From positions 10,435 through 74,434 of the forward strand of contig NZ_JBDWCI010000001.1 of the NCBI RefSeq assembly GCF_039977885.1: 64,000 nucleotides of DNA, written 5' to 3'. Both the position numbers and the translations under genes were made by a program. Source of the stretch: Sulfitobacter sp. (GTDB lineage: Bacteria; Pseudomonadota; Alphaproteobacteria; Rhodobacterales; Rhodobacteraceae). Below the pieces are notes generated by a model. The model saw nothing but the letters and a program-made list of their open reading frames with translations, did no database searches and was not told where the DNA came from. Below, piece after piece: positions 4,927-6,327 of this stretch (position 1 is the first letter of the stretch; the number at the start of each line of letters is the position of its first letter).

Positions 4927-6327
4927 ATGAAACTTAACAAGATAGCGACGATTGTATTCATCTTGGGGACGGTCAGTGCCGGTGCATTATCCGCACAGAC
5001 GCGCCCCGGAAGCCAGCCTGCGGAGTTCCCGCCGGCCTCTTACCAGGGCAAGCAATATGTTGACAGCGCGGGCTGTGTTTTCATCCGCGCCGGCATTGAT
5101 GGCAATGTCTCATGGGTGCCGCGTGTATCGCGGTCGCGCACAGGGGTCTGCGGTTTTCGCCCGACCTTTGCTAATCAGGTGACCGAGCCGGAGCCGGTTG
5201 CTCCTGTCAAGACTGCCGAAGTGATTGAGATCGCGCCCGAGGCTGTTGCCGCTCCGGTGGCGGTGGCGACACCAAAACCCAAGCCAGCGCCCGCCCGTGT
5301 TGTGAAAAAGGCCGCGCCAAAACCCGCACCCAAAGTTGTGCGCCAGCAGCCTGCGCCGCCCAAGATTGTTGAAAAAGAAGTGCAGCCTGCCCAGCCCGTA
5401 GTCCGTAGGGCAAAGGCACCTGCACCGGCCGAGGCTGCTGCTTGTCGCGGGGCTTCGCCGCTCAGCAGCCAGTATCTGCGCTCGGATAAATTCCCTGTGC
5501 GGTGTGGCCCACAAGATGAGGCTATTGTTGGTGCGCGCATTTCAACCGCACCCGCGCCTCGCGCTGCGGCTCCTGTTAAAACCGCAGCTGCCAAAGCGGC
5601 ACCCCAGCAACAGCCGATCCGCGTGTCGCCCAACCGCCGGATTGTGCCGCGCCATGTGGCAGTCAACCGTGTGAATACGACGAATGTTCAGGTGCCTGCC
5701 GGTTATACAACTGTCTGGACGGATGGCCGTTTGAACCCAAAACGGGCGGAGCAAACATTGGCGGGCCACCGCGCGATGAGCTTGATCTGGACCTCGACTG
5801 TGCCGCGCCGTTTGATCAATCAAGCGGACGGACATGATGTGACGGCCTCTGTTCCGTTGGTGTATCCTTATACGGATTACGCACGGCAACAGCGCGAGCT
5901 GGGTCAGGTGACCATCGTGAAACGCAATGGTCAGACGCTCAAGCGGATCGTGCGCGGCGCAAGCAATGTGGTCCACCCCGAGCCCGGTCAGGCGCGGGTC
6001 GATACGGTTGCGCGCCAGCCAGTCTTCTCAAGCCGGTCTGCCGCACCCAAGGCAACGCCCAAGGTTGCACCCAAACGCGCAGCCCAGCCAAAAGGCGAAG
6101 TAGCGGCGCGCGGATTTGTGCAAGTTGGCAAATTCAACGACAAAGCCTCGGCCCAGCGGCTGGCCAAGAAAGTGCAGCGCATGGGGCTTCCGGTGCGTGT
6201 GGGTGTCCACACCCGCGATGGACAAACCAGCCGTCTTGTCATTGCAGGCCCCTTTGGTGGCGAGCGTGAAGTGAGCAGCGCGATCAAGAAGTTGCGCAGT
6301 GCTGGATATAAGGCGTTTGCACGCTAA
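4927..6327 (+). CDS. Secreted SPOR-domain protein with Pro/Ala-rich linker
   Basis: Signal peptide [23 protein letters not shown]; C-terminal SPOR-like repeat GFVQVGKF...RLVIAGPF...[10 protein letters not shown]. Confidence 0.8.
   Translation: [466 protein letters not shown]

Follow-up and report, generated by a model that had tools for sequence, protein, structure and literature searches.

A window of DNA of 64,000 nucleotides from Sulfitobacter sp. (contig NZ_JBDWCI010000001.1, positions 10,435 to 74,434 of the forward strand) encodes a predicted periplasmic protein with a C-terminal SPOR domain, here called the SPOR protein. Just behind its signal peptide lies a short segment with two cysteines (Cys), and the first-pass annotation had pointed to matching segments in an OmpA-like protein and a lipoprotein encoded elsewhere in the window. 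The question raised by this locus is whether the three segments are copies of one module, and what such a module might do in the cell envelope. The reading preferred here, with a probability of about 0.6, is that the SPOR segment has diverged from other copies of a periplasmic mini-domain of ~33-50 residues, so far unnamed, which is confined to the Rhodobacteraceae and occurs in two subtypes, one in the SPOR protein and one in the OmpA-like protein and the lipoprotein. All coordinates refer to the window. The gene of the SPOR protein and its parts are the following, as found in the open reading frame (ORF).

4927..6327, + strand: SPOR protein gene, predicted periplasmic product of 466 amino acids (ORF; Pfam SPOR; without an NCBIfam family)
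4927..4998, + strand: predicted signal peptide, cut before Q25, no lipobox Cys (from the n-h-c pattern)
5017..5163, + strand: extended conserved block of the SPOR-type module, residues 31-79, with a ...VCGFxP end (from invariant columns)
5056..5151, + strand: core two-Cys module YVDSAGC-x24-C, residues 44-75, basic SPOR-type (from pattern, homologues and hhalign)
5443..5505, + strand: second conserved Cys pair C173-x19-C193 (C173 and C193 nearly invariant in 90 homologues)
6115..6321, + strand: SPOR domain PF05036, residues 397-465 (Pfam, 44.5 bits against a gathering score, or cut-off, of 21; E 2e-11)

Translation confirmed the segment at 5056-5151, and its earlier description was accurate in every detail. 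The parts of the protein follow each other in the order signal peptide, two-Cys module, Pro/Ala/Lys-rich linker, second Cys pair, conserved central region and SPOR domain. The module starts 20 residues past the predicted signal-peptidase I site and has a net charge of +2. The SPOR domain (PF05036), which binds peptidoglycan, is the only domain that Pfam reports for the protein, and its AlphaFold2 model has a predicted local distance difference test score (pLDDT) of 93-98. Three ORFs of the genome have a SPOR domain, and only the product of 4927-6327 has the module. The two other copies of the module are encoded by a pair of neighboring genes.

46457..47008, + strand: OmpA-like periplasmic protein gene, 183 amino acids, with a signal peptide and no lipobox (ORF, Pfam)
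46574..46669, + strand: acidic OmpA-type module copy WVDPDGC-x24-C, net charge -5 (pattern)
46709..46981, + strand: OmpA_C-like peptidoglycan-binding domain PF00691 (Pfam, 58.5 bits, cut-off 27.2, E 9e-16; AlphaFold2 pLDDT 65-92)
47021..47341, + strand: gene of a 106-amino-acid lipoprotein, lipobox LVSAC, Cys19, 12 bp downstream of the OmpA-like gene (ORF)
47168..47263, + strand: acidic lipoprotein module copy WVDPNGC-x24-C, net charge -3 (pattern)

As had been claimed, the three copies agree in a second Cys 24 residues after the first, in a terminal VC and in PR, PH or AR at module positions 22-23, and two of the carriers bear different peptidoglycan-binding domains (Pfam SPOR and OmpA_C). 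A scan of the window in six frames with [WYF]VD..GC-x24-C returned these three places, and the looser pattern [WYF][VIL]D..GC.{22,26}C found the same three and no other in all six frames of the 3.64-Mb genome. Given the residue composition of the long ORFs (~1.15 million residues), 0.015 matches are expected for a spacing of 24 and 0.10 for any spacing of 20-26, so the pattern is more than a product of chance. This bears on the first alternative, namely that the SPOR segment is an unrelated disulfide-closed loop which opens with a common aromatic-V-D-x-x-G beta-hairpin and whose equal spacing is coincidental; a strict pattern expected 0.015-0.1 times per proteome argues against such an accident.

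Within the SPOR protein the segment is conserved as a unit, in agreement with the earlier proposal, and its N-terminal position is fixed. A search with residues 20-110 yielded 532 proteins, nearly all full-length ones of which carry PF05036, and C-x24-C is kept in 120 of the 120 homologues listed. Against 1.84 billion representatives the segment profile matched 1,567 clusters (50% identity) at E <= 1e-3 and 1,304 at E <= 1e-10. The 150 best clusters all have the match near the N-terminus, mostly at residues ~35-85; a SPOR domain is present in 96 of 141 representatives, and those without it are mostly shorter and fragment-like. Conservation reaches beyond the 32 residues first described and covers a block at residues 31-79 (PAEFPP..Y.G.Q-YVDS.GC...VCGF.P). 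Invariant in 90 homologues are P31, E33, F34, P35, Q43, Y44, V45, D46, G49, C50, V51, R54, A55, G56, D58, G59, W63, R66, R71, C75, G76 and P79, and the block is likewise invariant in 141 representatives at 50% identity. The spacing had been expected to be conserved among SPOR orthologues. This holds for close ones (24 in 142 of 142 modules) but not for divergent SPOR-type modules, where the two Cys are 20, 21 or 25 residues apart; both Cys are present throughout, and the idea of a shared module is not refuted. Divergent copies of the OmpA/lipoprotein module have a spacing of 25, and 'exactly 24' is constant in neither module family. A range of 20-25 within the families takes weight from the equal spacing and in that respect favors coincidence.

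That the module is reusable had been suggested, and it is found in tandem duplications, module-only lipoproteins and small secreted proteins. Two metagenomic proteins carry tandem copies: P0241 has two OmpA-type modules ahead of OmpA_C, and P0361 has two SPOR-type modules ahead of SPOR, the second of which starts YVDPDGC and resembles the OmpA type. Small secreted proteins of 85-114 amino acids with a SPOR-type variant are encoded at L007 1426-1683 and also at L018, L020 and L021; they occur in few genera, are unlinked to the SPOR gene and align to the SPOR-type profile with 96% probability (hhalign, P 3e-9). In genome G497 a 74-amino-acid lipoprotein that consists of the SPOR-type module alone is encoded 294 bp upstream of a 216-amino-acid lipoprotein in which a linker joins a SPOR-type module to a SPOR domain (L016 288-512 and 807-1457). 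The locus shows the architecture in its smallest form and pairs, for a second time, a module-only lipoprotein with a module-tagged wall binder. The module is a self-contained unit that can be duplicated; it occupies the mature N-terminus, and the wall-binding domain lies at the other end of the protein.

Between the OmpA module and the lipoprotein module homology is clear (hhalign 99.4%, E 1.9e-21). Their consensus is W[VI]DPxGC.HW[VI].DDG.EG[YF]...R....G.P[VI]C and that of the SPOR type PPxxYxGxQ-[YF]VDSxGC-[VA][FY][IV]RAG..G...W[VI]PR....R..[VI]C; both conform to one family pattern, aromatic-[VIL]-D-x-x-G-C with a second Cys 20-25 residues on and both Cys conserved. The two subtypes share an aromatic residue five positions upstream, followed by aromatic-[VI]-D-x-x-G-C, [PA]-[RH] at positions 22-23, an x-P/x-[VI]-C end, two invariant Cys, placement after an export signal and restriction to the Rhodobacteraceae. 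They differ in charge, the SPOR type being basic (mean net charge +2.7) and the OmpA/lipoprotein type acidic (mean -3.7), in the middle of the module (RAG..G vs DDG.EG) and in the PAEFPP..Y.G.Q extension, which is conserved in the SPOR type.

The comparison of profiles that the first-pass annotation had proposed gave an answer that depends on their depth. Deep profiles, made of close relatives and of divergent members from other genera (Neff 3.7 and 4.5), align in exact register over 39 ungapped columns (hhalign 93.3%, P 2.7e-7). The real score of 33.8 lies far above those of 200 column shuffles of the template (mean 9.3, standard deviation 2.2, maximum 18.3) and above the score of the reversed template (9.0); with the small-protein members removed, the probability is still 91.4% (P 8.9e-7). 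When the deep SPOR-type hidden Markov model (HMM) was run over 12,346 six-frame genome ORFs (>=100 amino acids), the lipoprotein ranked 2nd and the OmpA-like protein 4th, both aligned at model positions 10-42. In the reverse direction the best match of the OmpA/lipoprotein HMM on SPOR-type proteins is the module, in register, in 252 of 261, which are orthologues and count as one observation. Intermediate sequences exist as well. The second module of P0361 reads YVDPDGCAFVRAE...WVPRLGADREPIC, the small secreted proteins have WVHPNGCQYSRAGRPGE...GC, and divergent modules of the two subtypes end alike (WVPRVGQDRKPVC vs YMVPRRNPKTGKPVC). All of this speaks against convergence, as do traits that both subtypes share, namely a position behind an export signal, the range of taxa and the type of host protein.

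Several results, however, weigh against a common origin and are what convergence can draw on. Shallow profiles of close relatives give hhalign probabilities of only 8-23%, the corresponding HMMs of the two subtypes have no cross-match in the genome, and between the subtype profiles no cross-match was obtained at E <= 0.05 in ~200 genomes. The E values of deep HMM against sequence are insignificant, at 1.4 for the lipoprotein and 7.3 for the OmpA-like protein one way and >50 the other way. Masking of the Cys columns alone reduces the profile-profile score to 19.7 (P 5.6e-4); masking of six motif columns reduces it to 12.9 (P 0.02, 13 columns), and the signal is therefore concentrated in the motif-defining residues. 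The in-register hydropathy correlation is weak (r 0.20) and no better than that of two-residue shifts, and the middles of the two modules are unlike in sequence and charge. A search of PDB with the SPOR-type profile matched only a 9-residue hairpin, VDSAGxVYV, in designed Pizza/NHL-type propellers, so that such a hairpin also occurs in unrelated blades; the OmpA/lipoprotein profile had no match there. On balance it is probable that SPOR-type and OmpA/lipoprotein-type modules share common ancestry, and this is not put higher because most of the signal sits in six motif columns. Convergence is judged unlikely, although it is the alternative that survives best.

The match to the propeller hairpin is itself consistent with the aromatic-V-D motif forming a beta-hairpin. 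In both AlphaFold2 models the VD residues and those just past GC are joined by a strand bridge, at low confidence; pLDDT is <55 over both modules (alignments of 90 rows for the SPOR protein and 54 rows for the OmpA-like protein), too low for the superposition that had been proposed, and this counts against the reading preferred here. An intramolecular disulfide is predicted because both Cys are kept in 131 of 131 and 203 of 203 aligned modules of the two subtypes, the number of non-lipid Cys is even in each carrier, each of the three carriers has an export signal and the genome contains DsbA-family genes. The first hairpin (aromatic-V-D-x-x-G-C-x-aromatic) and the strands that follow it would then be clamped by a Cys-Cys bond made in the periplasm.

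In 301 genomes across the class, strong matches of both profiles are confined to the Rhodobacteraceae and the other matches are marginal (E 0.003-0.05), so the lineage-specific character that had been proposed for the module stands. Among 201 Rhodobacteraceae genomes, sampled at about one per genus, the SPOR-type profile matches 146, usually once, and the profile of the OmpA-like/lipoprotein pair matches 133, nearly always exactly twice and ~600 bp apart. Both occur in 126 genomes, the SPOR type alone in 20, the pair alone in 7 and neither in 48. The co-occurrence counts in favor of docking (see below), but the resulting odds ratio of 43 is uncorrected for phylogeny, so that it mainly reflects a shared clade distribution.

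The gene order miaB, OmpA-like, lipoprotein, phoH, ybeY (44744-49071) is kept in all divergent Rhodobacteraceae genera examined except one (genome G314); the pair has been stably inserted into miaB-phoH-ybeY, a block which is itself widespread. In most annotations the OmpA-like gene starts at GTG 46433, which gives 191 amino acids. Of 12 OmpA_C ORFs in the genome only this one has the module. In the lipoprotein the module is the sole conserved block; it has 1,978 homologues, and a precomputed Pfam domain is present in 0 of the 120 listed. Two more Cys are conserved in the OmpA-like protein, C77 just past the module (VCRRGNVCG) and C181 at the C-terminus (IICI), and their positions suggest a second disulfide that would link the two ends of the OmpA_C domain.

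If the module is accepted as a shared mini-domain, its role may be that of a docking element, a tentative proposal. Module-only lipoproteins would anchor to the membrane those peptidoglycan binders that carry the module and are otherwise soluble, namely the OmpA-like protein and perhaps the SPOR protein; anchor and binder would form a two-part, Pal-like tether between membrane and wall, and pairing may take place between an acidic and a basic module. The proposal is made because the OmpA-like protein lacks a membrane anchor and the lipoprotein encoded with it in the operon is in essence a module on an anchor, because the two genes are adjacent in about 130 of 201 genera, because genome G497 repeats the combination of a module-only lipoprotein and a module-tagged wall binder at a second locus, and because the subtypes have opposite mean net charges. 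An interaction module that links the three proteins and coordinates septum and outer membrane, as had been put forward, would draw on the same gene adjacency and charge complementarity and on the uncorrected co-occurrence, and is a conjecture. That the SPOR protein joins the OmpA-like/lipoprotein pair is doubtful. There is also only a slim chance that a split tether exists in full, in which the acidic-module lipoprotein would recruit both the OmpA-like binder, for wall that bears stem peptides, and the basic-module SPOR binder, for denuded septal glycan, through disulfide-stabilized pairing of modules. Were this so, one anchor would couple the membrane to lateral and septal wall during division. 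To our knowledge Braun's lipoprotein is absent from Alphaproteobacteria, and the attachment of outer membrane to wall in this class, above all at the septum, is a subject of ongoing study. In about two thirds of Rhodobacteraceae genera one particular SPOR protein, one particular OmpA-like protein and a lipoprotein made of the module alone have this mini-domain in common, which makes it a concrete candidate for docking within this attachment.

A second alternative retains the shared module but gives it a non-protein envelope ligand. This could be a feature of peptidoglycan or of another glycan, a lipid or lipopolysaccharide, or a metal ion, for example calcium bound by the acidic DDGxEG loop. 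The acidic cluster DxDG...DDGxEG is indeed invariant in the OmpA/lipoprotein subtype, the fusion to two different wall-binding domains is what is often seen for accessory carbohydrate-binding modules, and small secreted proteins made of the module alone would fit a ligand-binding role. The SPOR subtype, however, is basic and has no acidic cluster, no likeness to a known sugar- or metal-binding family was found in Pfam, NCBIfam or PDB, and a lipid-anchored module encoded beside a module-tagged soluble wall binder fits pairing better; ligand binding is thus a minor possibility. A partnerless folding or stability cap, for example a disulfide-locked N-terminal plug that would shield disordered linkers from periplasmic proteases, or a reporter of oxidative folding, agrees with a small, apparently disulfide-dependent module that is always at the mature N-terminus ahead of low-complexity linkers but is improbable, in that the lipoprotein and the small secreted proteins are the module alone with nothing to protect and surface-type residues (R, D, E) are strongly conserved across 145 of 200 sampled genera.

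The reading as a mini-domain in two subtypes was also compared with known families. The module is not covered by any family in Pfam, NCBIfam or PDB; at the least it constitutes a new, so far undescribed domain family among the modular wall-binding envelope proteins, which are a familiar class. With such a family defined, ~1,500 SPOR-protein clusters would be better annotated, as would a similar number of OmpA-like and lipoprotein sequences that are labeled hypothetical. A Pfam search with the isolated modules at E <= 10 returned only sub-threshold matches to DUF6440 and DUF4988. DUF6440 (PF20037) is an uncharacterized family of 53 positions, whose best six-frame match here and in most of 24 genomes of the same genus is the lipoprotein or OmpA module (model positions 18-53). 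The scores of 12-18 bits across relatives lie below the gathering score of 26.5, the lipoprotein module of this genome reaches 12.8 bits, and the SPOR module gives no match. The literature held nothing relevant to the module and nothing useful on DUF6440, and a paper on the Rhodobacter sphaeroides CenKR regulon makes no mention of such proteins (PMC9275681). A link to the Dinoroseobacter shibae vesicle proteome (PMC7901474) was rejected: the abundant SPOR protein there, Dshi_0924, is the product of a different SPOR gene, has 268 amino acids and adjoins D-Ala-D-Ala carboxypeptidase and dTMP kinase. In the same species phoH (Dshi_1016) is flanked by a TonB receptor and not by an OmpA-like/lipoprotein pair.

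With the DedD/FtsN/DamX/RlpA-type proteins the SPOR protein shares a C-terminal SPOR domain after a long Pro/Ala/Lys-rich linker, and one of its homologues is named 'cell division septation protein DedD' in one source. It differs from them in its N-terminus, which is a cleavable-looking signal peptide and not a clear membrane anchor, and in the two-Cys module, the second Cys pair and the central region, none of which is known from these proteins. No NCBIfam family, and hence none of the named SPOR division families (FtsN, DedD, DamX, RlpA), was obtained for it at E <= 1; the assignment is to Pfam SPOR only. The Pal and Lpp tethers are comparable in the way they work and in no other sense, since a lipid anchor and an OmpA_C wall binder would be brought together if the modules pair. 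Here, by contrast, anchor and binder lie on two polypeptides; the OmpA-like protein has no lipobox, and its score with the Pal model TIGR02802 is 60 bits vs 125.

Further features of the SPOR protein and its gene were recorded. The central region (residues ~238-340, window ~5640-5950) is conserved as TRIVPRHV...VPxGYxxVWxDGRLNPxRAEQ... and matches no Pfam or NCBIfam family; by block its AlphaFold2 pLDDT is ~61-87, mostly 78-87, with helices and a beta-hairpin. The second Cys pair at residues 173-193 lies in the context QY[VL]...VRCGPQ, also written QYV..G...VRCGPQ. In P0387, P0423 and P0487 the module profile matches a second stretch, and the sole similar second sequence is the region of this Cys pair; C173-x19-C193 may, judged by this likeness, be a degenerate half-copy of the module. 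A scan for CtrA boxes (TTAA-N7-TTAA) upstream of the SPOR gene and of the OmpA-like/lipoprotein locus gave no match. Between the upp stop codon and the SPOR gene, at 4738-4784, five GANTC (CcrM-type) sites in nested inverted repeats lie within 47 bp, the window average being 0.67 sites per kb (43 in 64 kb). This cluster is compatible with a methylation-dependent, cell-cycle-timed expression of the SPOR gene.

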